Source of the DNA: Flavobacteriaceae bacterium
Lineage (GTDB): Bacteria > Bacteroidota > Bacteroidia > Flavobacteriales > Flavobacteriaceae
Reading direction: 5' to 3'
NCBI GenBank assembly: GCA_013042625.1
Contig: JABDPU010000140.1
Location: 1-36,299 of the forward strand
Length of the DNA: 36,299 nucleotides
Positions 20,282-36,299 of the stretch are shown piece after piece (the first letter of the stretch is position 1; each line of letters begins with the position of its first letter). A program made the position numbers and the translations under genes. The notes below the pieces were generated by a model, which was not told where the DNA came from, did no database searches, and saw only the letters and a program-made list of their open reading frames with translations.

Positions 20282-21652
20282 ATGGCACAAAAACCAAGAA
20301 TTCCGAAGGGAACCCGTGATTTTTCTCCTGCTGAGGTAACAAAGCGTCAGTATATTATTGAAAGTATCCGATCTAATTTTGAAGCGTTTGGCTTCCTGCC
20401 AATTGAAACCCCGAGTTTCGAATTATCAGATACCCTATTGGGTAAATATGGTGATGAAGGGGACAGGCTGATCTTCAGGATTCTCAATTCTGGTGATTAT
20501 CTTTCTAAAGTTGATCCTTCCATACTTGCTGATAAGGACTCGGCTACTTTGGCCGGATCTATTTCTGAAAAAGCATTGCGCTATGACCTCACCGTGCCGT
20601 TTGCACGCTATGTCGTGCAACATCAAAACGATATTGTGTTTCCCTTCAAACGATACCAGATCCAGCCTGTATGGCGTGCTGACCGGCCGCAGAAAGGACG
20701 CTTCCGGGAATTCTTCCAGTGCGATGCCGATGTCGTTGGAAGTAAATCCCTCTGGCAGGAAGTGGAATTCATTCAACTGTATGATGCCGTATTTCATGAT
20801 TTGAAGCTGAGTTCGGTTCAGATAAAGATCAATAATCGAAAGATATTATCCGGAATTGCAGAGCTAATCGATGCAACCGATCAATTTGTTGCTTTTACAG
20901 TGGCTTTGGATAAGCTGGATAAAATAGGGAAGGATAAAGTAGAGCAGGAGTGGCGTTCCGCAGGAATTTCTGATGAAGGTATTGAAAAGATACAGCCCTT
21001 GTTCGATTTAAAAGGCCATGTGCGCGAACAAGTTTCCCAGCTGAAGGCATTGCTTGCAGACTCGGAAACAGCTATGTCTGGTTTGAATGATACTGAATTC
21101 ATTCTTGATGCGCTGGATACGCTGAAATTGAAAACGGCTTCTGTAGAGCTTGATGTAACCTTAGCACGAGGGCTTAATTATTATACAGGCACTATTTTGG
21201 AGGTTGCCGCACCTGATGGTGTGCAATTGGGATCGATTGGTGGCGGCGGTCGCTACGATGACCTTGCCGGAGTTTTTGGACTGAAAGGTGTTAGTGGTGT
21301 TGGAATTAGTTTCGGACTGGATCGTATTTATCTTGCGATGGAGGAATTAAATGTATTCCCTGAGACCGTGAGCCAGGATGTGGAAGTCTTATTCATAAAT
21401 TTTGGTGAAAAGGAAGCCATGTATGCTATGAAAGCTATGAAAAAACTTCGGGATTCATCTGTAAACTGCGAGTTGTATCCCGATCCTGCTAAGATCAGCA
21501 AACAGATGAACTATGCCAACAGAAGGAATATTCCCTTCGTAGTTATGGCGGGAGACAAGGAAATGGCTGATGCCCAATACAGCTTAAAAAATATGAAAAC
21601 AGGAGATCAGGATACACTGTCCATTGAATCCCTGATAACTGCATTAAAATAA
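20282..21652 (+). CDS. hisS: Histidine-tRNA ligase.
   Basis: PKGTRDF.P, the class-II motif 2 region (FKRYQIQPVWRADRPQKGRFREFFQCDADVVG), GGGRYD.L and a C-terminal anticodon-binding domain. I prefer the ATG at 20282 (MAQKPRIPKGTRDF) to the TTG at 20276 used in the ORF track. Confidence 0.9.
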   Translation: MAQKPRIPKGTRDFSPAEVTKRQYIIESIRSNFEAFGFLPIETPSFELSDTLLGKYGDEGDRLIFRILNSGDYLSKVDPSILADKDSATLAGSISEKALRYDLTVPFARYVVQHQNDIVFPFKRYQIQPVWRADRPQKGRFREFFQCDADVVGSKSLWQEVEFIQLYDAVFHDLKLSSVQIKINNRKILSGIAELIDATDQFVAFTVALDKLDKIGKDKVEQEWRSAGISDEGIEKIQPLFDLKGHVREQVSQLKALLADSETAMSGLNDTEFILDALDTLKLKTASVELDVTLARGLNYYTGTILEVAAPDGVQLGSIGGGGRYDDLAGVFGLKGVSGVGISFGLDRIYLAMEELNVFPETVSQDVEVLFINFGEKEAMYAMKAMKKLRDSSVNCELYPDPAKISKQMNYANRRNIPFVVMAGDKEMADAQYSLKNMKTGDQDTLSIESLITALK

Positions 21653-21682
21653 AAAGCTCCGGGTCTACATCCGGAGCTTTTT
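21651..21682. terminator. Bidirectional rho-independent terminator between convergent hisS and the 2182-aa gene.
   Basis: AAAGCTCCGG (21653-21662) pairs with CCGGAGCTTT (21671-21680) across an 8-nt loop. An A-run lies 5' and a T-run 3', so the hairpin has a U-tract on both strands. Confidence 0.7.
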
Positions 21683-21707: not shown

Positions 21708-24700
21708 TCACTCATTAACTAATACCATTTTTGAAAATGAACCGCCTCGGGTATTAATCTTAAGGATGTAGGTCCCAGTACTTAAATTACTCACTTCATA
21801 TTCTGAATAAGAGTTCTCTACAATCTCCTCAACAGAATATATCGCTTTACCTAATGCGTCATACACGACGATAGAGGTAATTTCTTTTAATGTTGGATTG
21901 ATCAGGATTATACTGTCTATGTCATTAACATAGTGTACATCCATCTGGTCGTATTCAGGGTCATCAATATTCAATGCCTGTGTGCTGAATACAATGCTGA
22001 ATCGCTCGGTATGTTCACCTGCAGTGAGGAAGAATTCATAGTCACCCAGGGTGAGATCATGATAAACTTCTAATTCACTATCATAAACATAGGCCTTCAA
22101 TCCGTTTGTGTTATTTGAAAAACTGTCCAGCGAAATAGAGTTCATTCCATCTATATTGGAGTGTACTCCAAGTGCTAATGTTGTCATTTCAGTCAGGTTT
22201 CCAATACCCTGGATATTGTGTTTCTTGTCTTCAATTATCCAGTAGAGATCGTCCATCTGATCGGCAAATACTTCGGCGTCATAACCCCAGTCAATATCTG
22301 CAGTAGCATTCTCATCTATGGTCAATAGTAATTGACGTCTAAGGGTATTTATCGAATTAAATCCAATACGCACCTGTGTCCTCGGATCGTTAGAGTTAAA
22401 GGTTTGAGAATTATTGTTATTCGATTGTGCAGCCGGAGCAGTTCCTGAACCAAAAGTTATATTGGCTCCCTGGTTGGCTTCCATGAAAATGGAATTACCA
22501 GATGACTCCTTGTGATAAACACGCTGTCCGTTGTTGAAATTAATAGTACCTGTACCTTCAGCTACAACGAAGAAACCTTGTCCGACCGGAATATATCGTC
22601 CCGGAAGTTTAGTTGGTGTACCTCCTGTTCCAACATCAGGATCGTTAGTTCCCAATGCTGCAGATGGTGCTCCACCTGAGAGGTTATAGGTGCCGTATCC
22701 TCCTAAATATTCAGACAGCACGTGTGAACCGCCACCCCAGTGTTCCCAGAAATATAGGGTACCTGTTGTTGCGCCGGTCCCGCTTATTACAGGTCCGTTG
22801 TCTAAGATAAACTGATGGGCATCTATAGCTGAGGCATAAGGATTACCTACCAGGTAGTCATTGCCAGCCGATAGAGGCAGGTTGATCACTGCATTATGAG
22901 GTTTTCCATTGAAAACATAATTCTGATCATCGGAAATACCACCTGATCCGGGGCCTTTCATTGTAAAGCCTTCACCAGCTAAGAGATTACCTGTACTCCT
23001 CACATGTTGCCAAGATGGATAATCGTCATCCAACTGGTTAGCAAATTTCCATATCCAGTAATCTGCAATTCCTATCGGGTTGGTATTTGTGCCGTTATAT
23101 CCTGTTGTTATCCAGTTGATATTCTGAGTATCATCAAAAATGACATCATCAACGGTATAACTGTTATTGTTTGAGGTTATATTACTCACACCTACAGGTG
23201 CTGCCCAATAGTTATAGGTATAAACATCTGCAGTTCCCTGCTGATCTCTTTCCAGCGTTCCTGAACTAGTGACTTCAAGGTCACTGCCAAGTGTTTGTAC
23301 AAGCTGTGATTCACCTTCAAGGTCTATGGTTCCATCTAACTGGAGATAGTGAGTTACAGTCAGTCCGTTTCCTGTACCAGCAGCTGTGTCGCCATCGATC
23401 TGGATATCACCTGAATATTGTTTTAAGGCCAATACCGATCGGTCTCTTCCTAAAACATCATCTGTAGCTATCCTGATATCGTGACTGGCTTCTACAATGT
23501 TCCAATCAACAGACATATTTGAGTCTACAATGGACACATCATTCGGAAGATTTTGTTCCGCATCGTTCAACCAGGTTGAAGGTGTGGTCCAGTCGCCATC
23601 AGAATTTGAAACATAAGGTAGAGGAGCTGTTTGCCTGTCTACCGTATCAAGATTCCTTAAGGCACCCAGGACATCGTTACCTGATACATCATTAACATTG
23701 GTATATGTATAGATGGTCATGTCGTAGTAAGCAGCCAGGTCTGTCCACGGGATCGACCCAACTTCATTTTTTGTTATAGTTGTTGGTAATTCCTTACCAC
23801 TAACAAATCCTGCATTGTCGGCAATTTCCTGGTTCATGATGAATCGCATTTGATCGACAGTTAAAGCACGGTCCCAAATCCTTACTTCATCAATGTTTCC
23901 TCTATAGTGGGCGACAGGAGTGTTTTTGCCGGCAGCTGCCAGGTAAAATGACTGATTTGTATCCACAGGAGGAGTTAAATTTTCAGTTTGGTCCAGTACC
24001 CCGTCGATATATAGATTGGCTTCTGTACCATCAAAGATGACGGCTACGTGATGCCATTTGTTTTCAGGAATTGAAACATTAGATCGGATATCTTCTGTCG
24101 ATCCATTTTTCCAGCTCATTTCTACTCGACCTCCACCATCAAATCTTAGATCATAACCTTCAGTATATGCTGCATCGCGTTTCGATAAAATTGAACTGTT
24201 CTCTGAACCTGTATCACGCTTGATCCATGCAGAGACAGTAAATTCAGTGGTGTTAAGATTCAACTGATTTTCCATATCAACATAATCAGAAATACCATCA
24301 AATCTGATCGATCGGTCAGAAATAACCTGAGGGGCATATCCAAAAGTGATATATTTTGTTCCGTCGAAATCATAGAAACAAAACAGGTTACCCATTCCGT
24401 CAGATTTCATAACACGGTATGTTGCAGTCGGATCGAAAACCGGACTATCTGAAATAAGCATCAGGTAATCTCCCGGAGGATTGATATTTCGAATCGCGGC
24501 CTGAGGGATCTGAACTTTAACCAGTCCGATATCACCGCCGGTCTCTACAAATTTCCAGTGTCTTTGCATTCCCGTGAAGCTAACATCGGTGTTAAGAGCA
24601 GGAACAATTCCCGCACTCATATTCACACCAACAGGAGCTTCCGGTAAATCAAGACTAACACCATTATTTCCCCACATGAGGAATTCACGGTTGTTGAAAG

Positions 24701-27700
24701 TGTCTGGATTATCGGAAATGTTCAGATTATTAGTATCATAAATCTCAGTCAGTCCAATGGTTAAAATACCTTCGGTTGGACCTATGGCATCAACACCATT
24801 ATTTATACTGCTGGATTGCTTTTGAAGCAGGGCAGAGGCATCATCTCTTCCAATTCCTGCAATGTCATAATTAAACCCGGCATTGTCAGACTGATCCCAG
24901 ATCACTCGACCCTGAGAGTCAACATAGTCTTGAGAAGTTCCATTTACTCCAAGTGTAATTCCATACTTAACAGCAAGGTAACTGCTGATTCGGTTACGTT
25001 CCTGGGTGAGGTCACCGTCGTCTTTACGAGATGAGTAGGTGATCATTTCAACCACACGGGCATTTAGAGATGATTCCCAACCTTCACTTCGTCCGATCCA
25101 ATACCTGGAATCATTGGTGTTCATATATTCAGGAATATCATTCTGGGTGGTTTCAATATCAATTTGATTGTAATACAGCTCCTGTTGAGTATCTCCGGGA
25201 TTATTACGAGTATTGATAATCCCAACATTGTCATAGACCGAACCTGTTCCTATTTCAGCTACAGCATAACCATCAGGGGGACTTTGACCTGTGGAAAACG
25301 AGTCATGAGCGTAACAAATGATTTCTCCATTTACTCGTGCCGTATAATATCCGAATCCAACCCCTGTGGCATCCGTGGCATTTTGGTCGAGATGAGCATC
25401 ACTACAAAATACATCCATAAAACCAAAGTTGTTCGTGATCGGGGTTTCATCTGTTATCAATACAACAAAAATATCTTGTGTATGGAAACCATATTCACTG
25501 GTGAGGAAATGACCTGCACCACTATCATGTGAAAAATCGGAATCCAGGGTATAAGTTGCATAGGCATTATCGAATTCAACCACTGGGTTAAAATTCAAAT
25601 TATCAGTGACATTATCATGATAAGTCGGAGCCTGTGCAGGGTATTTTGCATAGGCATCTCCACCACGTCCCTGGTCTACCCAGTTATTCATGGACTGTCC
25701 GTCATTTAAGCTATGACCATCATTGGCTTTTAGCCAAACGGTAAGATCGGAAGTTACTCCACCAGGAGCAGTTGTTGGCTCCGCCTTTACAGTAAAGGTG
25801 ATCTTATCAATGGCCAGGTCACTTCTGTAATTATTCCCGGTAATACCCTGAACACGGATCCTGATCGTCTGGCCAATATAGGCGCTTAAGTCAAAACTGA
25901 TTGGGATCCATGATGAATTTCCTGAGTTTTGAACCTCGCCGTTATAACCAGTAAGGTTTACAGGAAATGTTGTTCCGCCATCTGTACTTAGATCGACGTT
26001 GAGATTACCCATGTCTTGTCCGTGCATATGATAAAACATGGTAACCCTTGGGTTTACAGTTCCTGTAAGGTCAACACATGGAGAAATAAGATTAGCTGTA
26101 TTGTTATAATTTGCACTGGCTTCTGTGTACATATAATACGACCCGTCATGAGCACCATTTGGCCCGGTGTTTCCAGTTGGAGTTCCTCCTGTCTGGTTGG
26201 TCCAGTCGAAATTATCGGTCAGGTCCTGAGACCAAAGGCCAGTGCCTGATTCGAAACTCTCTTCATATGGAAAAGTGTTCACAAGTGGACCCGGACAGGT
26301 ATTAAGTGTACCAGTTCCCTGAATGGCAAATCTATATGGATTCTCATCTGAATCGTCATTTCCAATAACGATCACGGCCTGGCGTAAACCGACGGCAGAC
26401 GGACTAAATCGTACGTTAAATGTTGTGCTATTTCCAGCAGCAATAGGGCTAATGGGTTGCACGGTAACCGTAAAGTCTGCCGCATTTGGTCCGGCAATAT
26501 TCACGAAAGGAGGTCCAACCAAATTAAGAGGGTTGGCTCCACCCTGATTAAGGATAGTGAATGTATGAACAACGGAAGAACTGACGATGACCGTTCCAAA
26601 ATCGGTGTCATCTGCTACAGAAGGCGTCAGGTCGTTGTTTGCAATGCTGTTTCCTAAACCGGTAATATCGATTTCCTGGGCAGGAGAGGTTCCGGTTCCC
26701 TGGATATCAAAATTATAAGGATTTTCATCTGAATCATCATTAGCGATGGTTAAGGTAGCTGAACGAAGTCCTGTAGCGGTCGGTAAAAATGTAACATTAA
26801 AATTTGAAATTCCACCCGGTGGAACCACGTTTGCGGGCGGTGCTGAAATGGCAAAATCACCTGGATTTGCTCCACCAATTACAATAAAAGGTGCAGCACC
26901 GGTTAAATTCAGTGGTGCGGTGCCTGTATTGTGGATTGTAAATGTATGGACAACAGGTGTTCCTATAGCTACTGTGCCCCAATCGGTATCATCGGCTACT
27001 GCGGGGGTTGTATCTCCATCAAGAATTGAATTTCCAAGACCTGTCACATCCATTTCCGGTTGTGGTGAACCAGTTAATCCGCTTAGGTCAATAATTTGAA
27101 TTTCGTGCGATGTGCTATTACCGCTACGATGTGACCAATGGGCGGCCTGGGTAGTGGAGTTAAAATAATAGTTTCTCCATCCACGTCCGTAAGCTGTTCC
27201 ATTACCACTGGAGGTAGATGAACCTACAATTAAAGCCTCGCTGGTACTTGTAAGTCCGGCTGCAGCAATATTTACTGTTGTTTCATTTGCAGGGGCGAAG
27301 GCACTTTGAAATCGTGTCACATTCATGCCTGTATTATCAAGAACATGAACAAAGTGACGGTTGGTTCCTGCCGAATCATGGTTGGCATTAAAAGTCCAGT
27401 CTACCAGCTGATTACTGGAACCGGGAGTCATAACAGGCCAGTTATCGGCAATGGCGTCATTGGTTCCGCTGGATCCTGTATCACCAATATGATGGGCGAA
27501 GATCACAGCATTACCCCAACCGCTTACATTAGTAGCGGCTCCTATACCATTGGCACTGGCACTTAAGGTAATGTTTCCTGTATCTGATGCAGAATTTCCG
27601 GAGTCACCATGTAGTACGGTCCAGTTAGTTCCGGTGAATTCAACCACAGTAACATACACTGTAACATTATTGCCGTTCGAACCTTTTTGAACTCTTAAGG

Positions 27701-28256
27701 TTGATGCATTTTCAAGATACGCTAAGGCTGTGCCCGAATCTGCATCATCGGAGGTTGAATTGTTCATTATTCCTGTTATAAAAGGAATACACTTAGCAGC
27801 GTTCACCACTCCACTCAAAGCCTGAGTAGTATTATTATTCGTCCCATTAAGGGTCACTGAATATCGACCACGGACAATAAATTCATTGGGTCCGCCAGGA
27901 GTTCCAACATATTCCCATATGGAGGTATTAAATCTTGTATTAGAATTTACTGAGGCGGATTCGCGATAGTAAGACAAAGTGCCAGTTGCAGTTAATTGCC
28001 TGGCTCCGGCTAAATCATCACTTTCAAGGTTTCCTCCACTACCGGGAACACCAGCTTGGGATTTTCTGTTGTTGTTGGCTAATTCAATGGCATTGTTCAA
28101 TGATGCAACCGGAGTAAATCCTGTGTTGGTTCCACCGGTGCGGCCAATATCATCCTGGAGGTGTTGAACGTTAAAATCTTGTGCGAATGAAACTGTACTA
28201 AATACAAAGGTCAGTAGCAAAGGCGCAATTCTGGTTAAGAATGTAGAATTATTCAT
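21708..28256 (-). CDS. Giant (2182 aa) secreted multidomain T9SS cargo protein. Order of modules: signal peptide, unique ~370-aa N-terminal domain, 2 Ig-like (choice-of-anchor-D-type) repeats, MAM, unassigned 491-aa module, LamG, unassigned ~626-aa module, type-A T9SS CTD.
   Basis: Single uninterrupted ORF. The signal peptide is MNNSTFLTRIAPLLLTFVFSTVSFAQ. Domain motifs are listed under the sub-features below. It is colinear with the neighbouring 1949-aa paralogue from the repeats to the C-terminus. Confidence 0.85.
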   Translation of the reverse strand: MNNSTFLTRIAPLLLTFVFSTVSFAQDFNVQHLQDDIGRTGGTNTGFTPVASLNNAIELANNNRKSQAGVPGSGGNLESDDLAGARQLTATGTLSYYRESASVNSNTRFNTSIWEYVGTPGGPNEFIVRGRYSVTLNGTNNNTTQALSGVVNAAKCIPFITGIMNNSTSDDADSGTALAYLENASTLRVQKGSNGNNVTVYVTVVEFTGTNWTVLHGDSGNSASDTGNITLSASANGIGAATNVSGWGNAVIFAHHIGDTGSSGTNDAIADNWPVMTPGSSNQLVDWTFNANHDSAGTNRHFVHVLDNTGMNVTRFQSAFAPANETTVNIAAAGLTSTSEALIVGSSTSSGNGTAYGRGWRNYYFNSTTQAAHWSHRSGNSTSHEIQIIDLSGLTGSPQPEMDVTGLGNSILDGDTTPAVADDTDWGTVAIGTPVVHTFTIHNTGTAPLNLTGAAPFIVIGGANPGDFAISAPPANVVPPGGISNFNVTFLPTATGLRSATLTIANDDSDENPYNFDIQGTGTSPAQEIDITGLGNSIANNDLTPSVADDTDFGTVIVSSSVVHTFTILNQGGANPLNLVGPPFVNIAGPNAADFTVTVQPISPIAAGNSTTFNVRFSPSAVGLRQAVIVIGNDDSDENPYRFAIQGTGTLNTCPGPLVNTFPYEESFESGTGLWSQDLTDNFDWTNQTGGTPTGNTGPNGAHDGSYYMYTEASANYNNTANLISPCVDLTGTVNPRVTMFYHMHGQDMGNLNVDLSTDGGTTFPVNLTGYNGEVQNSGNSSWIPISFDLSAYIGQTIRIRVQGITGNNYRSDLAIDKITFTVKAEPTTAPGGVTSDLTVWLKANDGHSLNDGQSMNNWVDQGRGGDAYAKYPAQAPTYHDNVTDNLNFNPVVEFDNAYATYTLDSDFSHDSGAGHFLTSEYGFHTQDIFVVLITDETPITNNFGFMDVFCSDAHLDQNATDATGVGFGYYTARVNGEIICYAHDSFSTGQSPPDGYAVAEIGTGSVYDNVGIINTRNNPGDTQQELYYNQIDIETTQNDIPEYMNTNDSRYWIGRSEGWESSLNARVVEMITYSSRKDDGDLTQERNRISSYLAVKYGITLGVNGTSQDYVDSQGRVIWDQSDNAGFNYDIAGIGRDDASALLQKQSSSINNGVDAIGPTEGILTIGLTEIYDTNNLNISDNPDTFNNREFLMWGNNGVSLDLPEAPVGVNMSAGIVPALNTDVSFTGMQRHWKFVETGGDIGLVKVQIPQAAIRNINPPGDYLMLISDSPVFDPTATYRVMKSDGMGNLFCFYDFDGTKYITFGYAPQVISDRSIRFDGISDYVDMENQLNLNTTEFTVSAWIKRDTGSENSSILSKRDAAYTEGYDLRFDGGGRVEMSWKNGSTEDIRSNVSIPENKWHHVAVIFDGTEANLYIDGVLDQTENLTPPVDTNQSFYLAAAGKNTPVAHYRGNIDEVRIWDRALTVDQMRFIMNQEIADNAGFVSGKELPTTITKNEVGSIPWTDLAAYYDMTIYTYTNVNDVSGNDVLGALRNLDTVDRQTAPLPYVSNSDGDWTTPSTWLNDAEQNLPNDVSIVDSNMSVDWNIVEASHDIRIATDDVLGRDRSVLALKQYSGDIQIDGDTAAGTGNGLTVTHYLQLDGTIDLEGESQLVQTLGSDLEVTSSGTLERDQQGTADVYTYNYWAAPVGVSNITSNNNSYTVDDVIFDDTQNINWITTGYNGTNTNPIGIADYWIWKFANQLDDDYPSWQHVRSTGNLLAGEGFTMKGPGSGGISDDQNYVFNGKPHNAVINLPLSAGNDYLVGNPYASAIDAHQFILDNGPVISGTGATTGTLYFWEHWGGGSHVLSEYLGGYGTYNLSGGAPSAALGTNDPDVGTGGTPTKLPGRYIPVGQGFFVVAEGTGTINFNNGQRVYHKESSGNSIFMEANQGANITFGSGTAPAAQSNNNNSQTFNSNDPRTQVRIGFNSINTLRRQLLLTIDENATADIDWGYDAEVFADQMDDLYWIIEDKKHNIQGIGNLTEMTTLALGVHSNIDGMNSISLDSFSNNTNGLKAYVYDSELEVYHDLTLGDYEFFLTAGEHTERFSIVFSTQALNIDDPEYDQMDVHYVNDIDSIILINPTLKEITSIVVYDALGKAIYSVEEIVENSYSEYEVSNLSTGTYILKINTRGGSFSKMVLVNE
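21711..21944 (-). other. T9SS type-A C-terminal sorting domain (aa ~2105-2182).
   Basis: The terminal 78 aa read ...SIILINPTLKEITSIVVYDALGKAIYSVEE...YEVSNLSTGTYILKINTRGGSFSKMVLV. This shows the usual Por_Secre_tail beta-strand pattern (..(V/I)Y(D/N)..G..(V/I)......L..G.Y(I/L)(V/L)......K.(V/I)). Confidence 0.75.
23823..24314 (-). other. LamG / concanavalin-A-like lectin domain (aa ~1315-1478).
   Basis: RSIRFDGISDYVDM.....FTVSAWIK.......ILSKRD....GYDL......W(H/N)HVAVIFDGT.ANLYIDGVL.........F.(L/I)(G/A)A......Y.G.IDEVRIWDRALT..Q(M/I) is the Laminin_G_3 pattern. Confidence 0.8.
25788..26297 (-). other. MAM domain (aa ~654-823).
   Basis: C..........FPYEESFESGTGLWSQD..DNFDWT.QTGGTP(T/S).NTGP..A.DGS.YMYTEAS......A.LISPC.DL.........F.YHM.G..MG.L.VDLS.D.G.T.........G........W....(F/I).LS.Y.GQTI.IR..G.TG....SD.AID.I.F is the MAM pattern. 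Confidence 0.8.
26304..27062 (-). repeat. Two tandem ~125-aa intragenic repeats (aa 399-526 and 527-651; nt 26679-27062 and 26304-26678). They are Ig-like and of the choice-of-anchor-D / HYDIN-like type.
   Basis: Each copy reads (E/Q)(M/I)D(V/I)TGLGNSI...D.TP.VADDTD(W/F)GTV.....VVHTFTI.N.G...LNL.G.......G.N..DF......P........ST.FNV.F.P(T/S)A.GLR.A...I.NDDSDENPY.F.IQGTG. Confidence 0.8.
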
Positions 28257-28309
28257 AAGCGGTTAAGTTTATAGTTTGGGACTACTATGTGTTATAATGA
28301 TATAACAAT

Positions 28310-28341
28310 CAAATATAGAAATACCCCCTACCAAACGCAAA
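28310..28341 (-). promoter_or_regulatory. Candidate Bacteroidota sigma-A promoter of the 2182-aa gene.
   Basis: On the minus strand a TTTG (28338-28341) is followed by a 20-nt spacer and TATATTTG (28310-28317). This matches the -33 TTTG and -7 TAnnTTTG consensus exactly. The ATG is about 55 nt downstream. Confidence 0.45.
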
Positions 28342-28456
28342 ATTATTCGACGAAACACACATATGAATTATAAATATCTGAAATACAAATAGATACGTAT
28401 AATCAACACTTCAGATTTATCTTACAAAAAAATTGAATTATCGATGAAAAGCACTA

Positions 28457-28495
28457 TAAAAAAATAAGAGCTTCCCGAATACTCAAGAAGCTCTT
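28457..28495 (-). terminator. Rho-independent terminator of the 1949-aa gene.
   Basis: AAGAGCTTC (28466-28474) pairs with GAAGCTCTT (28487-28495) across a 12-nt loop. On the minus strand the hairpin is followed by ATTTTTTTAT. It begins 23 nt after the stop codon. Confidence 0.6.
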
Positions 28496-28518
28496 TTAAG
28501 TGATTAAATATCTACATC

Positions 28519-31500
28519 CTATTCAACCAAAACTTTTTTGGTAATATTACCTTGTTCGGTTTCAGATTGCAGGATATAGGTCCCAGTACTTAAATTACTC
28601 ACTTTATACTCGACATAGGAATTTTCCGAAGGAATATTCTCAATCGAATAAATTTTCTGTCCAATTACATTGTAAATAGTAATTGAGCTTATGTTGATAT
28701 TAAATGGATTAACAATTATAATGCTATCCATATCATTAGAATAATAAACATTGAATGATCCAGTCTCTTCATCTTCCAGAATGACTTCATCGATGGCTTC
28801 TTCATCATCTGTGAGATCTGAATTATCGGTTCCTGTTTCAACATATCGGAAAACGATTTCAAATCGGCTCAGGTTTTCACCGGCTGGCAGATAGAATTCA
28901 TATCCGCTTTCCATTAAATCATGATAGAGCTCGAGGTCCTTGTCATGAATCCAAACCTTCATATCTTCTTGTGCATTTAAAAGTTCATCAAGAACAATGG
29001 TATTCAATCCATCATTTTCGGTATGAATTCCCAAAGGAAGCACAGTATTTTCACTTAAATTATCTGTACCCTGAATAACGTATTTATCGTTGTTGATCAG
29101 CCAGTAAAGGTCATCGATCTGGTCTTCGTTTAACTGGCCGTCATAACCATTATCAATACCATCTGTAGCATTATCATCTACCGTAAATAACAGTTGTCGG
29201 CGCATGGTATTAACCGAATTGAATCCAATCCTGAATTGTGGCCTGGATTCTTCCTCTTCAAATAACTCGAAATCACCTAATCCGTTTGAACCTTCAGAAC
29301 CGAAAGTAGGATTATCCGACTGAGGTGCTTCTACAAAAATTGAGTTTCCTGATGATTCTTTATGAAATACACGTTGCCCATTATTGAAATTAATAGTTCC
29401 GGCCGTTTCAGCTACTACAAAGAATCCTTGTGCAACCGGTATATATCGTCCGGGTGTTTTTGTTGGTGTTCCGCCGGTTCCTACATCAGGATCGTTTGTG
29501 CCCATAGCTGCAGATGGTGTTCCTCCCGATAAATTGTAAGTAGCATAACCACCTTGATATTGACTCAATACGTGTGATCCGCCACCCCAGTGTTCCCAGA
29601 AGTATAGTGTCCCTGTTGTAGCTCCAGCCCCGTTTATCAAGGCTCCGTTATCCAGAATGAATTGATTAGCATCCAGGGCAGATGGATATGGATTACCAAC
29701 CAGATAATCGTTTCCTGAAGATAAGGTCAGGTTGATATCGGCATTGTTCGGTTTACCCAGGTAAACATAATTCTGATCATCCAGGATTGCACCACTGCCA
29801 GGCCCTTTCATCGTAAATCCTTCACCGGCATTAACCGTGCCTGTACTTCTAACATGTTGCCAGGAGGCGTAGTCATCATCGGGCTGATTGGCAAATTTCC
29901 AGATCCAGTAATCTGCTATACCGATAGGTGAGGCATTACTACCATTATAACCGGATGTTAACCAGTTTATATTACTGGTCCCATCTCGTAAAATATCGGG
30001 CAGAGTATAGTTGTTATTGTTGGACGTTATATTACTGATTCCTACGGGAGCAGACCAATAGTTGTAGGTATAGGTATCGGCTGTTCCTTGCTGGTCGCGT
30101 TCCAAGCGTCCTGAACTGGTAACCTCAAGGTCGCTGTTCATGGTCTGTATAAGCTGCGATTCACCTTCAAGATCGATATCGCCATCCAGGTTGAGGTAGT
30201 GGGTTACGGTAAGTCCATATCCTTCTCCGGTAGCATTATTACCATCAACCGTAAGCGTATTTGCATTAACAAACAGTCCGAGAACCTTTCTATTATCATT
30301 ATTAACGGCAGGAAGATCAGTTGCATTTATGATGTTGACATCATGGTTGATCTGAACGATATTCCAATCGACCGAAACGTTTGAATCGACGATTGAAGTT
30401 GTTCCGGGAATGTTCTGAACACTTCCGTTTTCCCATGTATTCAGATTTTCCCATGTTCCGGTCTGCGTTGACTTGTAGGGTAGTGGAGCAGTTTGCCAAT
30501 CCACTGTAACCAGGTTCTTTAATGAGCCCTGTATACCATTTCCTGATTCATCTTTTGTATTGGTATAGGTATAAGTTGACATCGGATAATAGCCTGCAAG
30601 ATCTGACCATGGCAAGGTTGCCGTATCATCTTTAGTTGGCGTTATCGCAAGATCCTGGAAATATTTGCCACCGACGAATGAGGAGTTATCCTCTATCTCC
30701 TGGTTCATAACATACCTCAGTTGAGTGGCAGTTAATGCCGCGTCCCAGACTCTTACTTCATCAATGTTTCCATGGAAATAAGCGGTAGTTCCGGTTTTAC
30801 CTGCAGCTCCGACGAAGAATGATTGATTCGTGGCTACAGGGGCAATTCGTGTACGTGTTGTATCGGCTACACCATCGATGTACAAAGTGACATCTGTGCC
30901 ATCGTAAATAGCGGCTACATGATGCCATTTATCTGTTGGAATAACGACAGAAGACGTAACTTCCTGTATTGGTCCTCCGCTATTTCTCCATCGGAAGTGA
31001 AGACGTCCGAGGGTATTTATTCTCAGGTCATAACCTTCGGTAAAACCGGCGTCACGCTTCGAAAGGATGGATTTGTCTGTCGAGTTTGCACCGCGATTGA
31101 TCCATGCCGAAATAGTAAATTCGGAAGGATTAACATCGAGGTTGTCTTCCATATCGATATAGTCCAGGTTTGCCGGATCGAAATAGATCGAACGCTCAAA
31201 AACGCGTTCAGGAGCCCATCCAAAGGTGATGTATTCTGTTCCGTCGAAATCGTAGGTTGTACTCAATGTAGCACCGGATTCGTCCATAACCCTGTAGTCT
31301 GCAGTAGGATCGAATACTCCGGTTGATGAAATGAACATCAGGTATCTTCCGTCCGGAGGTGTGGCAGTTCTCACAGCGTTACTTGGTAAAGAAACTTTTA
31401 CGGTTCCTATATCTCCGCCATTTTCAACCACTTTCCAGATTCGGGGAATCGCTTCAAAGGAAACATTAGTGACTAAGCTTGCATCTCCAATTCCGGCACT

Positions 31501-34368
31501 CATATCAACGGTTACAGACATGGCTGCACCATTTAAGCTGGCGCCATTATTTCCCCACATTAGGTATTCGCCATCGTTAAAGGTATTGGAGTTGGTAGTT
31601 ATATTTTCGTTGTTAGTGGTATAAATGTCTGTTAGTCCCATCGTGAGCACACCTTCAATAGGACCGGTTCCATCTGTAGCGTTATTTACACTACTCGATT
31701 GTTTTTGAAGTAATTCGGAGTCGTCATCCCGCCCGATTCCAGCAATATCATAATTGAATCCTGCATTGGCCGATTGATCCCAGATCACGGTACCGTTTGA
31801 ATCGACATAGTCTTGAGAGGTACCATTAGCTCCTAATGTGATACCATATTTAACAGCCAGGTAAGACTGAACACGGTTTCTTGCCTGGGTTAAATCGGCA
31901 TCAGCCAATCGTGAATCAAACGTAATAACCTCGGCTATTCTTGCATTTAAGGAGGCTTCCCAGCCCTCACTTCTGCCAATCCACCATCTACCATCGGAAG
32001 TGTTCATATATTCGGCCGTATCATTCTGGGTTGTCTCTATATCATTTGCGTTGAGATACAATTCCTGTAAGGTATTGGCCGCATTATTCCTGGTATTGAT
32101 TATACTAACATTATCATAACTTGAACCTGTTCCTATTTCGGCTACAGCGTAACCATCGCCTGCACCACTAAAGGTATCATGAGCATAAGAAATAATTTCG
32201 TTATTGATACGTCCTGTATAATCACCAAAGCCTAATCCTGTGGCATCGGTCTGGTTAGTTTCTACGTGGGCATCGCTACAGAAAACATCCATAAACCCGA
32301 ATGAATTGGTTATGGGTGTGTCATCTGGTATAATTACAATGAATATTTCTTGTGTAAAGAATCCATAATCACCATAAAGGAATTCTCTTGTGTTATCATC
32401 ATAAGAGTAATCTCCATCTGTCGTAAATGTGTTATAGGAATTGTCAAATTCAATTACAGGGTTGAAATTAATATTTTGAGCGGCATTATCCCTATAAGTT
32501 GGTTCCTGCCCTGTTGTATTGATCTTTCCATCATCACCACGACCCTGGTCAAGCCAGTTAGACAAGCTTTGTCCATCAGTCAGGGTGTGTCCATCATTAC
32601 TTTTAAGCCAAAGTGCCAGGCTTGATGTTTCTCCACCAGGACCGATAGTTGGATCTGATCGATCGATTATTGAGAAATTATCGATAGCAATATCACTTCT
32701 GTTGCCAGCTCCGGTGTTTCCTTGTATCCTGATTTTAATGGTTTGCCCGATATAACTACTTAAATCGAAACTAAGGGGTATCCATTCCGAATTATTCGCG
32801 GTCTGTGTTTGCCCGGTAATTGTTATGAGGTTGTTCGGATATGTCAGTCCTGAATCTGTACTTAAATCAACGCTAAAACTATTGACATGACTGCCATAAA
32901 TATGAGCATAGAATGTTGCTCTTGGATTAGTTGTTCCAGTCAGGACAAAACAAGGTGAGATCAGGTTGGCAGTGCTACTATTATTTCCATCTGATTCTGT
33001 ATAATAATAATTTGATCCATTGTATGCACCAGATGGTCCTGTACTTGCGGTCGGAGTTCCACCTGTTCCTTGGGTCCAGTCGAAATTATCTCCTGTGTCC
33101 TGGGCCCACATTCCTGTTCCTGACTCAAAATCTTCTGTATACGGGAAGGTATTGACATAACCACCACATAAATCGATCCCGGTTCCCTGAATGTCGAAGT
33201 TGTAAGGGTTTTCGTCAGCATCATCATTACCTATGGTCACCACTGCTGTTCTTAGTCCAAGGGCACTCGGATTGAAAGTTATATCAAAGGTCGTTGAACC
33301 TCCAATGCCTATGGTATTTGATGGAATGGCGGTTACTGTAAAATCTGCAGCATGAGTTCCAGAGATTGTAACATAAGGCGATGCTCCCATCAAATTAAGG
33401 GTTAAGGTACCAGTATTATAAATTGTAAAGGTGTTAACATTGGTTCCTGCGGTAATATCTACATTTCCGAAATCTGTATCGTCCGTGGTCGAAGGTGTGA
33501 TATCTCCATCCACTATAGAATTACCATTACCCTGTATATCGATCTCGGGTTGTGGGGTAGTTGCAACACCAGTTAAATCGAAGTTGTATGGATTTTCATC
33601 AGCATCGTCATTAACAATTGAAAAGGTTGCCGTTCTCGTTCCTAATGCTGTTGGATTAAAAGTTATCACAAATGTCGTGGTACCTGCCGGAGTAACCGGA
33701 GTTGCAGGAGGTGTAGTTACAACAAAATCAAGAGGATTGGCTCCTGTTACTGCTGTTGCACCGAGGTTGAGGTTGGCAGTACCAAGATTATGTATTGTGA
33801 ATGTATGAGCAACCGGAAATCCAATTGCCGTTGTACCAAAGTCAGTATCATCAGTGGTAGACGGCGTTATATCTCCGTCTGCAATTGATATGCCAAGCCC
33901 GGTAACATCCATTTCAGGAACAGCTGCTTGTCCGGTTCCCTGGATTGCAAATGTATATGGTGAATTGGTTCCGTTTGTGAATGTAATGGTCACGGTAGCT
34001 GTCTTAAGGCCCGGAGTACTTGGAGTAAATGTTATTATGTGATTCAGCGGTGTGCCGTTACCTGTAAGATTTCCAAGATTAGCAACAGCAGGTGTAAAGT
34101 CTGCAGAGCCCGTAATGGTGACTGTAATTCCATTTAATCGATTACCAGGACTTCCTCCTGATGCCGTGTTGTCTAGAACAAAGGTATTTGGATTATTATT
34201 TCCAACGATTATGGTACCAAAATCGGTTCCATCGGTTATCCAGGGTGTAGTATCACCACTAGTTATGGTATTACCATTACCTGTTACTGTTAATGTTCCC
34301 TGCCCATATGAAAAGGCTGAGAACAATAATACCAGGACGGTAAATTTATATTGGTTAAAACACTTCAT
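28519..34368 (-). CDS. Giant (1949 aa) secreted multidomain T9SS cargo protein, paralogous to 21708-28256. Order of modules: signal peptide, 3 Ig-like (choice-of-anchor-D-type) repeats, MAM, unassigned 490-aa module, LamG, unassigned ~646-aa module with acidic linkers, type-A T9SS CTD.
   Basis: Single uninterrupted ORF with signal peptide MKCFNQYKFTVLVLLFSAFSYGQ. Long blocks are nearly identical to the neighbouring gene, for example LERDQQGTADTYTYNYWSAPVG, IADYWIWKFANQ and GTLYFWEHWGGGSHVLS. Confidence 0.85.
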   Translation of the reverse strand: MKCFNQYKFTVLVLLFSAFSYGQGTLTVTGNGNTITSGDTTPWITDGTDFGTIIVGNNNPNTFVLDNTASGGSPGNRLNGITVTITGSADFTPAVANLGNLTGNGTPLNHIITFTPSTPGLKTATVTITFTNGTNSPYTFAIQGTGQAAVPEMDVTGLGISIADGDITPSTTDDTDFGTTAIGFPVAHTFTIHNLGTANLNLGATAVTGANPLDFVVTTPPATPVTPAGTTTFVITFNPTALGTRTATFSIVNDDADENPYNFDLTGVATTPQPEIDIQGNGNSIVDGDITPSTTDDTDFGNVDITAGTNVNTFTIYNTGTLTLNLMGASPYVTISGTHAADFTVTAIPSNTIGIGGSTTFDITFNPSALGLRTAVVTIGNDDADENPYNFDIQGTGIDLCGGYVNTFPYTEDFESGTGMWAQDTGDNFDWTQGTGGTPTASTGPSGAYNGSNYYYTESDGNNSSTANLISPCFVLTGTTNPRATFYAHIYGSHVNSFSVDLSTDSGLTYPNNLITITGQTQTANNSEWIPLSFDLSSYIGQTIKIRIQGNTGAGNRSDIAIDNFSIIDRSDPTIGPGGETSSLALWLKSNDGHTLTDGQSLSNWLDQGRGDDGKINTTGQEPTYRDNAAQNINFNPVIEFDNSYNTFTTDGDYSYDDNTREFLYGDYGFFTQEIFIVIIPDDTPITNSFGFMDVFCSDAHVETNQTDATGLGFGDYTGRINNEIISYAHDTFSGAGDGYAVAEIGTGSSYDNVSIINTRNNAANTLQELYLNANDIETTQNDTAEYMNTSDGRWWIGRSEGWEASLNARIAEVITFDSRLADADLTQARNRVQSYLAVKYGITLGANGTSQDYVDSNGTVIWDQSANAGFNYDIAGIGRDDDSELLQKQSSSVNNATDGTGPIEGVLTMGLTDIYTTNNENITTNSNTFNDGEYLMWGNNGASLNGAAMSVTVDMSAGIGDASLVTNVSFEAIPRIWKVVENGGDIGTVKVSLPSNAVRTATPPDGRYLMFISSTGVFDPTADYRVMDESGATLSTTYDFDGTEYITFGWAPERVFERSIYFDPANLDYIDMEDNLDVNPSEFTISAWINRGANSTDKSILSKRDAGFTEGYDLRINTLGRLHFRWRNSGGPIQEVTSSVVIPTDKWHHVAAIYDGTDVTLYIDGVADTTRTRIAPVATNQSFFVGAAGKTGTTAYFHGNIDEVRVWDAALTATQLRYVMNQEIEDNSSFVGGKYFQDLAITPTKDDTATLPWSDLAGYYPMSTYTYTNTKDESGNGIQGSLKNLVTVDWQTAPLPYKSTQTGTWENLNTWENGSVQNIPGTTSIVDSNVSVDWNIVQINHDVNIINATDLPAVNNDNRKVLGLFVNANTLTVDGNNATGEGYGLTVTHYLNLDGDIDLEGESQLIQTMNSDLEVTSSGRLERDQQGTADTYTYNYWSAPVGISNITSNNNNYTLPDILRDGTSNINWLTSGYNGSNASPIGIADYWIWKFANQPDDDYASWQHVRSTGTVNAGEGFTMKGPGSGAILDDQNYVYLGKPNNADINLTLSSGNDYLVGNPYPSALDANQFILDNGALINGAGATTGTLYFWEHWGGGSHVLSQYQGGYATYNLSGGTPSAAMGTNDPDVGTGGTPTKTPGRYIPVAQGFFVVAETAGTINFNNGQRVFHKESSGNSIFVEAPQSDNPTFGSEGSNGLGDFELFEEEESRPQFRIGFNSVNTMRRQLLFTVDDNATDGIDNGYDGQLNEDQIDDLYWLINNDKYVIQGTDNLSENTVLPLGIHTENDGLNTIVLDELLNAQEDMKVWIHDKDLELYHDLMESGYEFYLPAGENLSRFEIVFRYVETGTDNSDLTDDEEAIDEVILEDEETGSFNVYYSNDMDSIIIVNPFNINISSITIYNVIGQKIYSIENIPSENSYVEYKVSNLSTGTYILQSETEQGNITKKVLVE
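28522..28755 (-). other. T9SS type-A C-terminal sorting domain (aa ~1872-1949).
   Basis: ...SIIIVNPFNINISSITIYNVIGQKIYSIEN...YKVSNLSTGTYILQSETEQGNITKKVLV has the same pattern as the paralogue's CTD. Confidence 0.75.
30694..31194 (-). other. LamG / concanavalin-A-like lectin domain (aa ~1059-1225).
   Basis: RSIYFDPANLDYIDM...FTISAWINR.....SILSKRD.GFTEGYDL......KWHHVAAIYDGTDVTLYIDGV........FFVGAAG......F.GNIDEVRVWDAALT..QLRYVMNQEI. Confidence 0.8.
32665..33168 (-). other. MAM domain (aa ~401-568).
   Basis: CGGYVNTFPYTEDFESGTGMWAQDTGDNFDWTQGTGGTPTASTGPSGAYNGSNYYYTES...ANLISPCFVL......F.AHIYG..VNSFSVDLSTDSG.....W.PLSFDLSSYIGQTIKIRIQG.TG.G.RSDIAIDNFSII. Confidence 0.8.
33172..34299 (-). repeat. 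Three tandem ~125-aa intragenic Ig-like (choice-of-anchor-D-type) repeats. They span aa 24-146, 147-269 and 270-399 (nt 33931-34299, 33562-33930 and 33172-33561). The first copy is the most diverged.
   Basis: Copies 2 and 3 read E(M/I)D(V/I).G.G.SI.DGDITPSTTDDTDFG.........NTFTI.N.GT..LNL.........G....DF.VT..P.........TTF.ITFNP(T/S)ALG.RTA...I.NDDADENPYNFD(L/I).G. Copy 1 keeps GDTTPWITDGTDFGT...FTP..PGLKTATVTI......PYTFAIQGTG. Confidence 0.8.
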
Positions 34369-34415
34369 TAGTGACTAAGTTTTAAGTAGTTTGGGACTAA
34401 CTTTCACTTTATTAA

Positions 34416-34462
34416 GGGTCAATGAGATGTGTGACCACTCGGGCAACACATCTCATCGACCC
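34416..34462 (-). terminator. Long 17-bp hairpin between the M14 peptidase gene and the 1949-aa gene. It may be a terminator, attenuator or RNA-stability element.
   Basis: On the minus-strand RNA, GGGUCGAUGAGAUGUGU pairs with ACACAUCUCAUUGACCC across a 13-nt loop (16 Watson-Crick pairs and one G-U). It starts 19 nt after the M14 stop codon. It is followed by UUAAUAAA only, which is a poor U-tract. Confidence 0.4.
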
Positions 34463-34481
34463 GATTAGAATACTAACATAT

Positions 34482-36299
34482 TTATTCTTTGATCAATCGT
34501 TTAACAAGGCTCTGTCCGGAATCGGCATCGGTCATCTTCAACAGGTAAGTTCCGGATGAAAGCGGATTGAGATTGTTTATTAATATTGTGTTTCCAGAGG
34601 TTGTGAATTCAGAATGAATTAAACGTCCTCTGATATCATACAATGCGAGTTGCATACTTCCAGCCTCGAATTGTGATGGCAGATCTATTTCAATTTCTGA
34701 ATCGAATGGATTCGGATATATTTTCAAATCAGCCAAGGATTCATCTTCCAATCCGAGTGTATCAACAGTTACGTCCACCTGAATCGTGACCTGATCATTG
34801 CCACATAGCGGATCGGTACTGGTGAGAATCACATCGTATTGACCACTGGCACCATAGGTATAAACCGGATTGGTGTCTGTTGAAGTTCCTGATCCATCAC
34901 CAAAATCCCAGCTATAGGTATCGGCGTCGGTTGAGGTATTGGTAAATGTCACCTCACCATTATTTGATGGATTAACAACATGAGAGAAATTCGCAACCGG
35001 TAGCGGATCAACATTTACGATCACTTCTTCCCTGGCGCTCTTAATTGGAGAGATTTTCCAGTCGTAAAAGAAGTAATAGTAGTTGGTATCTACATTTGAA
35101 TTTTTGATTGAAATCGAACCATTATTGTAAGGATAATTGGTTCCGGCAGCTGCGTTATTTCTCCACAGATTAAAGCCTGATGACATTTCGGCACTTGCTA
35201 ATCTGAGGTCATTGGCTACAGGGACTATAAAGTCAAGTGTAATTTCCTGAATTCCGGCAGACTCAACAATAATAACTCTTGAATCAAGCATGTTTCCTGC
35301 GCTGTCCTGTAATTGAACTTCAATTTCTCCGGCCTGCTGTGCATTGATCTCTACAGATTTCAATAGTACAGACTCTGTGCAATCGAATATCAGGTAACGG
35401 TCATTTTGACCACCGGCGAAGAATCCACCGTTTGTAGTATTTCCGGTTTCACCAACATTTGGTCTGGAAATTACTTGTTCAACAAAATATGATGTCGTTG
35501 CGGTTAAGGCAGGAGTTGTAAAGTTTGCTCCTGTAAATACAGGTGTATCACCTGCAATGTCATCGTACCAGTTCAGTGTTCCGGTACCGGTAGCGCTTAA
35601 GTTTGCAGTACTGTTCTCGCAAATAGTTGTATCTGATGCGGTTGGATTAGAGGTAGTAGCTACCAATGTTATATTCTGAACGGTTTTAGTATTGTTTGAA
35701 ATACTTACACCGTTAATAGTTTGTGATACATATCCCGGCGCCTCATAGGTTACGTTATATGTACCAGCTTCAAGCAGTCTGTAATAATCGCCCAGGGTAG
35801 GATTAGAGCTTACCCAGGTATTTAAATTCATATCATCATGCCCTGTGATCTTTATATTGGCTTCAACAGGGTTTCCAGACTCGTCCGATACATTTCCCTG
35901 TAATCCGTAATCGGCCTGCTTCATATAATCGAGAAAGGCTTGCTTATTCCAGTTCCAATGATTTGGTAATTGGTTACCAGGAAGGAATTTGGTGTCGGAT
36001 AATTCTATTGTTACTTCTTTGGAATGCCTGAAATAGTTCATGTAGTCCTGTCGGCCACCATAAACAACATACCATTGAGCTCCGTTGGTTACACCCGGAC
36101 TTGGGTCTATACCTGAATCATAATCAACGGTCATATAGTTACCGGGAACACCTGGAGAATTATGCACATTATCGGCGTATTCAACTGAGATATACTCGAA
36201 GTAATCATGATCTACATGCTGATTGTAAGTGTTGTCGTAAGGGTAGTTAACCAGCTCAACACCACCGTGGAAATTAGCTGCCAGTACGATGTTTCGAGA
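34482..36299 (-). CDS. M14-family zinc carboxypeptidase (N/E-like subfamily), partial. The N-terminus lies beyond the window end. The visible part comprises the peptidase core C-terminal portion, a carboxypeptidase-regulatory-like beta-sandwich, an Ig-like domain plus an unassigned beta-domain, a PKD domain and a type-A T9SS CTD.
   Basis: The track ORF begins at an internal GTG (36167). My manual translation continues upstream without a stop to 36299: SRNIVLAANFHGGVELVNYPYDNTYNQHVDHDYFEYISVEYADNVHNSPG.... The (A/S)N(F/L)HGG..V.NYP(Y/F)D block is the M14 substrate/zinc-region signature. GNVSDESGNPVEANIKI...GDYYRLLEAGTYNVTYEAPGY is the transthyretin-like regulatory domain. Confidence 0.85.
   Translation of the reverse strand, partial: SRNIVLAANFHGGVELVNYPYDNTYNQHVDHDYFEYISVEYADNVHNSPGVPGNYMTVDYDSGIDPSPGVTNGAQWYVVYGGRQDYMNYFRHSKEVTIELSDTKFLPGNQLPNHWNWNKQAFLDYMKQADYGLQGNVSDESGNPVEANIKITGHDDMNLNTWVSSNPTLGDYYRLLEAGTYNVTYEAPGYVSQTINGVSISNNTKTVQNITLVATTSNPTASDTTICENSTANLSATGTGTLNWYDDIAGDTPVFTGANFTTPALTATTSYFVEQVISRPNVGETGNTTNGGFFAGGQNDRYLIFDCTESVLLKSVEINAQQAGEIEVQLQDSAGNMLDSRVIIVESAGIQEITLDFIVPVANDLRLASAEMSSGFNLWRNNAAAGTNYPYNNGSISIKNSNVDTNYYYFFYDWKISPIKSAREEVIVNVDPLPVANFSHVVNPSNNGEVTFTNTSTDADTYSWDFGDGSGTSTDTNPVYTYGASGQYDVILTSTDPLCGNDQVTIQVDVTVDTLGLEDESLADLKIYPNPFDSEIEIDLPSQFEAGSMQLALYDIRGRLIHSEFTTSGNTILINNLNPLSSGTYLLKMTDADSGQSLVKRLIKE
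34485..34733 (-). other. T9SS type-A C-terminal sorting domain of the M14 peptidase.
   Basis: LKIYPNPFDSEIEIDLP.....MQLALYDIRGRLIHSE......ILINNLNPLSSGTYLLKMTDADSGQSLVKRLIKE contains the canonical (Y/F)PNP(F/V/A) and L..G.Y(L/I)(L/V)K motifs. Confidence 0.85.
34764..35009 (-). other. PKD domain of the M14 peptidase.
   Basis: PVANFSHVVNPSNNGEVTFTNTSTDADTYSWDFGDGSGTSTDTNPVYTYGASGQYDVILTSTD contains the PKD signature (F.N.S....(Y/F).WDFGDG......NP.(H/Y).Y...G.Y.V.L). Confidence 0.85.

Follow-up and report, generated by a model that had tools for sequence, protein, structure and literature searches.

Two giant genes lie side by side in a stretch of flavobacterial DNA, and the question they raise is whether they form a new surface or secreted system or are members of one that is already known. 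The stretch, 36,299 nucleotides (nt) from a Flavobacteriaceae bacterium (assembly GCA_013042625.1, contig JABDPU010000140.1), is called the window below; the two genes encode proteins of 2182 residues (P1) and 1949 residues (P2). The first-pass annotation had treated the pair as an unassigned and possibly novel system that matched no characterised surface system of Bacteroidota. Our answer is that P1 and P2 are probably paralogous multi-domain adhesins, exported by Sec and T9SS (the type IX secretion system), with a tail of the RemA class and a diversifying binding end. The earlier assessment stands in so far as the family is uncharacterised and poorly annotated; novelty does not, as the tail ties the proteins to a known adhesin class and the family is widespread.

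21708-28256 (minus strand): gene P1, an uninterrupted open reading frame (ORF) of 2182 residues; signal peptide, N-domain, two choice-of-anchor-D immunoglobulin (Ig) repeats, MAM, PF26628 module, LamG, C-module, type-A C-terminal domain (CTD)
28519-34368 (minus strand): gene P2, an uninterrupted ORF of 1949 residues; signal peptide, three choice-of-anchor-D Ig repeats, MAM/choice-of-anchor-J, PF26628 module, LamG, C-module, type-A CTD
34482-36299 (minus strand, cut by the window end): upstream gene for a T9SS-secreted M14 carboxypeptidase, from its Pfam and NCBIfam domains

Much of the initial description holds. The two adjacent minus-strand ORFs are intact, far above chance expectation in length at 40% GC, and together cover 12,399 nt of the window (the 12.4 kb first reported). 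Pfam and NCBIfam scans reproduce the choice-of-anchor-D, MAM and LamG modules and give the same list for both proteins from the Ig-like repeats onwards; P1 400-2182 aligns with P2 151-1949 at 62% identity with few gaps (BLASTP). The gene preceding the pair does encode a T9SS-secreted peptidase.

Part of the evidence for the adhesin reading lies at the C-terminal end, where both proteins have the following parts.

23832-24341 (minus strand): P1 LamG, residues 1306-1475 (PF13385), first part of a conserved cassette
30703-31221 (minus strand): P2 LamG, residues 1050-1222
22995-23831 (minus strand): P1 linker and C-module subdomain 1, residues 1476-1754, all-β, with high model confidence at about residues 1546-1685
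29872-30702 (minus strand): P2 linker and C-module subdomain 1, residues 1223-1499
21945-22994 (minus strand): P1 RemA/RemZ-like region, residues 1755-2104, from profile homology and the model
28768-29871 (minus strand): P2 RemA/RemZ-like region, residues 1500-1867
21711-21944 (minus strand): P1 type-A CTD, residues 2105-2182, from TIGR04183 and structural superposition
28522-28767 (minus strand): P2 type-A CTD, residues 1868-1949

The LamG domain is clear in both proteins (Laminin_G_3, PF13385; E 3e-34 for P1 1320-1469 and 6e-31 for P2 1069-1217). The C-module that follows, about 630 residues (P1 1476-2105), goes unmatched in local copies of both Pfam and NCBIfam, also at a threshold of E<=10. 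Single sequences searched against PDB chains with phmmer find RemZ (E 3e-22 and 5e-17), and a profile of 36 family members matches both RemZ (E 2e-59, residues 716-1112) and RemA (E 2e-48, residues 1053-1435). The homologous stretch is P1 1755-2180, the last ~430 residues; a weak extra similarity joins P1 1609-1690 to RemZ 608-682. The view that the pair resembles no characterised surface system is thereby not supported for this region, which strongly matches a characterised adhesin family, whereas the remainder of each protein does not. RemA is a lectin-bearing motility adhesin that causes aggregation via galactose-containing extracellular polysaccharide (EPS) (PMC8481357, PMC12618676), and RemZ is a type-A T9SS substrate and RemA homologue (PMC10994853).

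RemA (Fjoh_0808) and RemZ (Fjoh_0803) of Flavobacterium johnsoniae are secreted proteins of large size that likewise begin with a signal peptide and end in a type-A CTD. They have the homologous region of about 350 residues before the CTD, as well as the CTD itself, carry lectin-type binding domains in the passenger and are encoded in paralogue families. Their passengers are unrelated to those of P1 and P2: the SUEL lectin of RemA and the Gly-rich region of RemZ are replaced by choice-of-anchor-D Ig repeats, MAM, PF26628 and a LamG domain fused directly to an extended C-module. P1 and P2 are also ~1.4-2 times longer.

Within the RemA/RemZ-like region, β domain A (with the motifs GNPYASA, YFWEHW and GQGFFV) is followed by a disordered linker and a β-sandwich, B. 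Domain A (P1 1746-1925) is the most conserved part of the pair, at 83% identity versus 55-67% for the other structured modules. Such conservation suggests contact with a conserved cellular partner and not a free-floating protein, and domain A is a candidate for what holds RemA-class adhesins on the cell. It bears on a rather unlikely alternative, namely that P1 and P2 are exported by T9SS and then released as soluble glycan-binding or matrix-scaffolding proteins (cross-linkers of particles or EPS) with no part in motility. Neither sequence shows a membrane anchor, and lectin-like folds would fit release equally well. In F. johnsoniae many cargo proteins with a type-A CTD are released, and RemA itself is partly anchored and partly released, with RemA-HaloTag found partly in the medium (PMC12618676). 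Against release stand the very strong conservation of domain A and the fact that the sole characterised relatives of the pre-CTD region, RemA and RemZ, are cell-surface adhesins.

The predicted route of export agrees with the adhesin reading and with what was first noted for both proteins. By inspection, the N-termini resemble Sec signal peptides (MNNSTFLTRIAPLLLTFVFSTVSFA/QD and MKCFNQYKFTVLVLLFSAFSYG/QG, the slash marking the putative cleavage point), each combining a basic n-region with a hydrophobic h-region and a cleavage motif of small residues. At the other end, TIGR04183 (type-A CTD) scores 34.4 bits in P1 and 26.0 bits in P2 (cutoff 23), and the CTD in the model fits onto the solved structures of the mirolase and NucA CTDs (Foldseek, TM-score (template modelling score) 0.68-0.76, probability 1.00). 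At K1110 of RemZ, the conserved Lys near the C-terminus that contacts PorV, the two proteins differ: P2 ends in ...ITKKVLVE, its KK aligning with K1109/K1110, and P1 has a Met there, with its Lys at K1109.

The N-terminal parts are made up of the following modules.

27060-28178 (minus strand): P1 N-domain, residues 27-399, with no P2 counterpart
26301-27059 (minus strand): two P1 choice-of-anchor-D/HYDIN-type Ig-like repeats, residues 400-652 (NF012200, PF22544)
33172-34302 (minus strand): three P2 choice-of-anchor-D repeats, residues 23-399
25782-26300 (minus strand): P1 MAM module, residues 653-825 (PF00629, PDB MAM proteins)
32656-33171 (minus strand): P2 MAM module, residues 400-571 (PF00629; NF038128, choice-of-anchor-J)
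24342-25781 (minus strand): P1 central module, residues 826-1305 (PF26628 in homologues, AlphaFold2 model, Foldseek)
31222-32655 (minus strand): P2 central module, residues 572-1049

The choice-of-anchor-D stretches score 142 and 182.5 bits with NF012200, and the MAM domain is found by PF00629 at E 2e-18 (P1 667-822) and 2e-12 (P2 413-567). All folds recognised in the two proteins (MAM, LamG, Ig-like) are of the binding type. The N-domain of P1 has no Pfam or NCBIfam match in the local copies even at E<=10, and its profile finds no structure among PDB sequences; in a database of 5.8 billion proteins the profile finds only 36 homologues, all unnamed. The same domain type stands at the N-terminus of a giant protein in 12 related loci, and at that of a third array gene in 1 more, at 58-73% identity. 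Over its 373 residues it is strongly conserved, with 75% mean column identity and many invariant W, H, R and G residues.

The central module had been listed as one without a recognised family, and this no longer applies. It does lack a match at E<=10 in NCBIfam and in the local Pfam copy, which predates PF26628; the unassigned modules scanned in isolation returned, at that threshold, only sub-threshold noise (DUF4988 and DUF6619). Nearly all of its 111 database homologues carry a precomputed PF26628.1 assignment. The more general claim of two large modules without family or catalytic signature is right for local Pfam and NCBIfam; beyond these, the central one probably belongs to PF26628, to judge from its homologues, and the C-terminal region is homologous to RemA/RemZ. 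Elsewhere the PF26628 module occurs in small proteins with a type-A CTD alone, in proteins of ~783 residues with SprB repeats and a type-B CTD, and in a handful of organisms outside Bacteroidota.

An AlphaFold2 model of the module built from 33 sequences is all-β (predicted local distance difference test score (pLDDT) 85, predicted TM-score 0.90). It has a jelly roll at about residues 1-250, one helix bearing the invariant YLAVKYGITL, and a second β domain with the GIGRDD/QKQS motif; a profile search of PDB sequences adds a weak LamG match to 4qvs. The best Foldseek matches are the Hc receptor-binding domains of botulinum and tetanus neurotoxins (BoNT/TeNT) and trans-sialidase lectin domains (E ~6e-8, probability 1.00, TM-score ~0.35). 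The fold given by the model is thus a ConA/LamG-like jelly roll with one more β domain attached. The likeness to the clostridial neurotoxin Hc and trypanosomal trans-sialidase lectin domains is one of fold only; it covers a single domain at ~10% sequence identity and TM-score ~0.35, and does not imply the same ligands.

ConA-like jelly rolls also include enzymes such as GH16, GH7, PL7 and similar families. The PF26628 jelly roll or the C-module could accordingly be a cryptic enzyme, for example a ConA-fold glycoside hydrolase (GH) or polysaccharide lyase (PL), which would make P1 and P2 giant secreted enzymes that degrade polysaccharides and carry binding modules. In its favour, marine Flavobacteriaceae, to which the hosts belong, are known to degrade polysaccharides, and certain polar positions are strictly conserved in the family (K272, D313, Q320 and the GIGRDD motif; H364, H370). 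Such a function is nevertheless highly improbable. No catalytic Pfam or NCBIfam family appears even at E<=10, and the 50 structural matches listed for the central module are non-catalytic lectin or receptor-binding domains, with no hydrolase or lyase among them. The C-module matches no enzyme in PDB or BFVD (Foldseek); S-layer, BSP and ENGase structures were considered as its relatives and rejected at PDB TM-scores of ~0.1. No catalytic family is found among the 25 most frequent Pfam families in sampled relatives (n=25) with the same C-terminal cassette, and no SusC/D or carbohydrate-active enzyme gene lies nearby among the window ORFs scanned. That scan (Pfam) comprised 21 ORFs besides P1 and P2, two further ORFs of at least 100 residues, at 5751-6128 and 12789-13229, being left out.

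Several observations weigh against the adhesin reading itself. The homology to RemA and RemZ spans only ~20% of each protein, and RemA's SUEL-type lectin domain is absent from P1 and P2 (no Gal_Lectin/SUEL in the Pfam scan). About 650 residues of P1 (N-domain and C-module subdomain 1) have no fold or family match. The AlphaFold2 model of the C-module, with three β subdomains, a disordered linker and the CTD, is of moderate confidence (pLDDT 75) and outside the CTD matches no solved fold in the PDB, so that a role as base or anchor is an inference. The CTD of P2 falls under Pfam's own cutoff for Por_Secre_tail (PF18962; 25.8 bits, against 28.6 bits for P1 and a cutoff of 27). P1 ends in ...FSKMVLVNE, with Met at the position of the conserved Lys1110 of RemZ and Lys one position earlier (K1109). 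Finally, there is no gld, spr or por gene (T9SS or gliding machinery) among the window ORFs scanned, and a T9SS is presumed from the taxonomy of the relatives, all of which are Flavobacteriaceae.

On balance, what is shown comprises the ORFs, domains, homology, folds, synteny and conserved cis-elements. The export of P1 and P2, their display at the surface, their binding of ligands and any part in gliding are inferred, and they can be combined into the following scheme. The signal peptide would direct each protein to the periplasm, where the type-A CTD would be recognised by the PorV/SprA translocon. Once exported, the protein would be presented at the cell surface or, as has been reported for RemA, be released in part. 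The C-terminal cassette of LamG, C-module and CTD may serve as a constant base or stalk that deals with conserved components of the cell envelope. The N-terminal part would be the variable, shuffled array: choice-of-anchor-D Ig repeats, MAM, the PF26628 jelly roll and, in P1, the orphan head domain. This array may recognise glycans or other surface ligands, whether on polysaccharides of algae or particles or on other cells. Among the main colonisers and degraders of algal particles are marine Flavobacteriaceae, whose means of attachment are poorly known.

The cassette is far from rare. An exhaustive HMMER search, counted as representative clusters at 50% identity, gave 3751 C-module clusters at E<=1e-3, of which 833 reach E<=1e-30. 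The C-module is always at the extreme C-terminus, in proteins of 700-3676 residues, and Laminin_G_3 is present in 24 of 25 sampled representatives. The domains that precede the cassette in this sample are Ig, PKD, Ig_7, SprB, HYR, GEVED, MAM, pentaxin, galactose-binding-like (GBD) and fn3, all of them of a binding or structural kind. Source annotations are generic ('LamG-like jellyroll fold domain-containing protein', 'T9SS type A sorting domain-containing protein'). Database proteins annotated in this way, from Winogradskyella, Psychroserpens, Algibacter and others, have the same cassette at 46-69% identity; they come with names only, no function attached. By sequence, then, LamG, C-module and type-A CTD together are the C-terminal cassette of a large, uncharacterised family that is not fundamentally new, with exchangeable binding heads on a constant base; the analysis connects these giant T9SS proteins, a very large group with generic annotations, to RemA and RemZ, its sole characterised relatives.

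The surroundings of the pair give the same picture. A scan of one genome per species yielded 295 relatives, and 77 loci were examined, from Winogradskyella, Psychroserpens, Aquaticitalea, Algibacter, Hyunsoonleella, Olleya, Yeosuana, Gaetbulibacter, Gelidibacter and other genera; the closest relatives are two metagenome-assembled genomes (L001 and L008; 81-86% identity). Full-length architectures match in these 77 loci, at the same site next to hisS. Arrays of 1-4 giant genes occur, convergent with hisS in 56 of the 77, and beyond hisS the recurring genes are DUF6495 (55 loci), rplI (46), a LytTR regulator (42) and priA (29). With some 3750 clusters and a locus that is syntenic across many genera, the idea of a rare novel system is no longer tenable.

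The core of PF26628, LamG, C-module and CTD recurs in most giant genes of these loci, and the N-terminal mix of N-domain, Ig repeats and MAM varies from genome to genome, also between orthologous loci. Tandem copies are 36% to 92% identical, a spread that points to repeated duplication. The site next to hisS is thus a hot spot, a fixed place at which giant genes are duplicated and shuffled, and tandem duplication with domain shuffling there would diversify the binding end. In five loci (L005, L007, L021, L040 and L043) a more distant giant subfamily, with LamG and C-module and 37-40% identity to P1, lies further upstream (for example L040:1409-9346), which suggests larger surface-protein islands.

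Copy number and N-terminal architecture change rapidly at a locus that stays in place, and this could also be read as diversification driven by an arms race and not by substrate binding, with P1 and P2 forming a protective or decoy coat (S-layer-like, or a receptor decoy for phages or predators). The top PDB match of the C-module is indeed an S-layer protein, and one cassette-like protein in BFVD is filed under 'uncultured marine phage'. This reading is very improbable. The S-layer match is non-significant and, at a TM-score of 0.09, meaningless; PADLOC anti-phage defence models give no match at E<=0.01; and the same evolutionary pattern is seen in diversifying adhesins. As to the BFVD entry (A0A8D9C8P8, 587 residues, E 3e-23 to the whole C-module model), either a phage carries a copy of the cassette or a bacterial contig was wrongly filed as viral; the likelier case is a homologue whose contig was misfiled or derives from the host. 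Its name, 'putative hemin binding protein', was set aside as functional evidence and read as a transferred name on a homologous cassette. The readings as a released matrix protein, a cryptic enzyme or a decoy coat are each less well supported than the adhesin reading.

How the adhesin genes may be regulated can be approached from their upstream regions, in which the following elements were found.

28257-28358 (minus strand): P1 promoter and leader, conserved upstream of giant genes in more than 40 loci of many genera
28347-28358 (minus strand): P1 box GTGTTTCGTCGA
about 28327-28340 (minus strand): P1 degenerate second box TTGCGTTTGGTAGG
28310-28317 (minus strand): P1 -7 box TATATTTG
28272-28284 (minus strand): P1 leader motif TAGTCCCAAACTA, followed by AACCGCTT-ATG
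34369-34462 (minus strand): region between the M14 gene and P2, a hairpin and then the leader motif
34416-34462 (minus strand): hairpin with a 17-bp stem between the M14 stop codon and the P2 leader
34387-34399 (minus strand): P2 leader motif TAGTCCCAAACTA
28466-28495 (minus strand): terminator-like hairpin after the P2 stop codon, 13-bp stem and T run
21651-21682 (minus strand): terminator-like hairpin after the P1 stop codon and before the convergent hisS, 12-bp stem and T run

The consensus of 44 aligned upstream regions is TGCATTTCATCGA-N7-TTGCATTTcAtaGA-N11-TAtgTTTG-...-TTAGTCCCAAACT-aAAAtTTAACCGCTT-ATG. We read this sequence as follows: a direct repeat (period 20 nt) overlaps a -33/-7 promoter of the Bacteroidota type, and a conserved leader comes next. 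The exact 13-mer TAGTCCCAAACTA is present in the 5' leaders of both P1 and P2, and in 41 of the 77 loci its core 10-mer precedes the first giant ORF by ~20 nt. A scan for sigma-70 promoters stayed at chance level (40 sites versus 43.7 expected), and Rfam gave no family at threshold in the intergenic region or the whole window.

Only one gene had been credited with its own promoter and terminator. The promoter of P1 is supported by its conservation across genera, whereas terminator-like hairpins follow both genes. The region between the M14 gene and P2 contains no promoter boxes; as P2 has only a hairpin and leader, it may be read through from the M14 gene. An equivalent hairpin-plus-leader arrangement is found in L001 (hairpin at about 9905-9950). 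The 3' arm of the P2 hairpin (ACATCTCATTGA) resembles the promoter box, and the hairpin may derive from that box and stand in for the promoter as an attenuator or processing site.

The direct-repeat box TGCATTTCATCGA-N7-TTGCATTTCATAGA stands upstream of giant genes and of M14 genes alike (e.g. L013:8740-8830 and L027:6345-6413). In 1.61 Mb of loci the sequence ATTTCRTCGA occurs 84 times on the gene strand versus 2 times on the other, where a back-of-envelope estimate from composition gives ~5 per strand by chance; 59 of the 84 precede giant genes and 16 precede M14 genes. M14 genes have both the double box and the CCCAAA leader in common with the giant genes. In 51 loci the gene immediately upstream, in the same orientation, encodes a homologous T9SS M14 carboxypeptidase of 800-3055 residues; the median gap is 214 nt. 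Given the promoter box common to both in related genomes, the adhesin array and the carboxypeptidase are probably co-regulated.

In Porphyromonas gingivalis the T9SS M14 carboxypeptidase CPG70 trims the C-termini of surface adhesins and gingipains. The likeness, a T9SS-secreted M14 carboxypeptidase genetically paired with T9SS surface adhesins, is a lead only. A regulator may be at hand in the orphan LytTR response regulator (receiver plus LytTR) at 17704-18399 of the window (minus strand), which is 92-97% identical across genera, compared with only 66-77% for hisS and only 67-84% for ribosomal protein L9 in the same comparison. LytTR regulators bind direct repeats, and this one is a speculative candidate for binding the promoter box; no box was found upstream of the LytTR gene itself, so that the link remains speculative. 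Very tentatively, the locus might be one example of an unrecognised co-regulated surface module of marine Flavobacteriaceae, in which a T9SS M14 carboxypeptidase and a rapidly diversifying array of RemA-like giant lectin adhesins would be governed by the TGCATTTCATCGA-N7-TTGCATTTCATAGA operator, the CCCAAA leader and a dedicated regulator (conceivably the LytTR protein), with the peptidase maturing the adhesins at the cell surface. Promoter box, leader and partner peptidase offer handles on the regulation and maturation of T9SS adhesins.

Two other known systems were compared and set aside. SprB-type gliding adhesins (type-B CTD, SprF-dependent) are, as P1 and P2 would be, giant T9SS cargo on the flavobacterial surface; P1 and P2 contain neither SprB repeats (PF13573) nor a type-B CTD (PF13585) in the Pfam scan, and there is no sprF/porP-like gene downstream, where a terminator and hisS are found instead. 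A SusC/D polysaccharide utilisation locus was rejected because none of the 21 other window ORFs scanned with Pfam is SusC-like or SusD-like. These ORFs are housekeeping genes or lack a match, and include hisS, rplI, rpsF, priA, nadC and the LytTR regulator. Between hisS and rplI lies the DUF6495 gene (19770-20240, plus strand), whose position is kept in 55 related loci.

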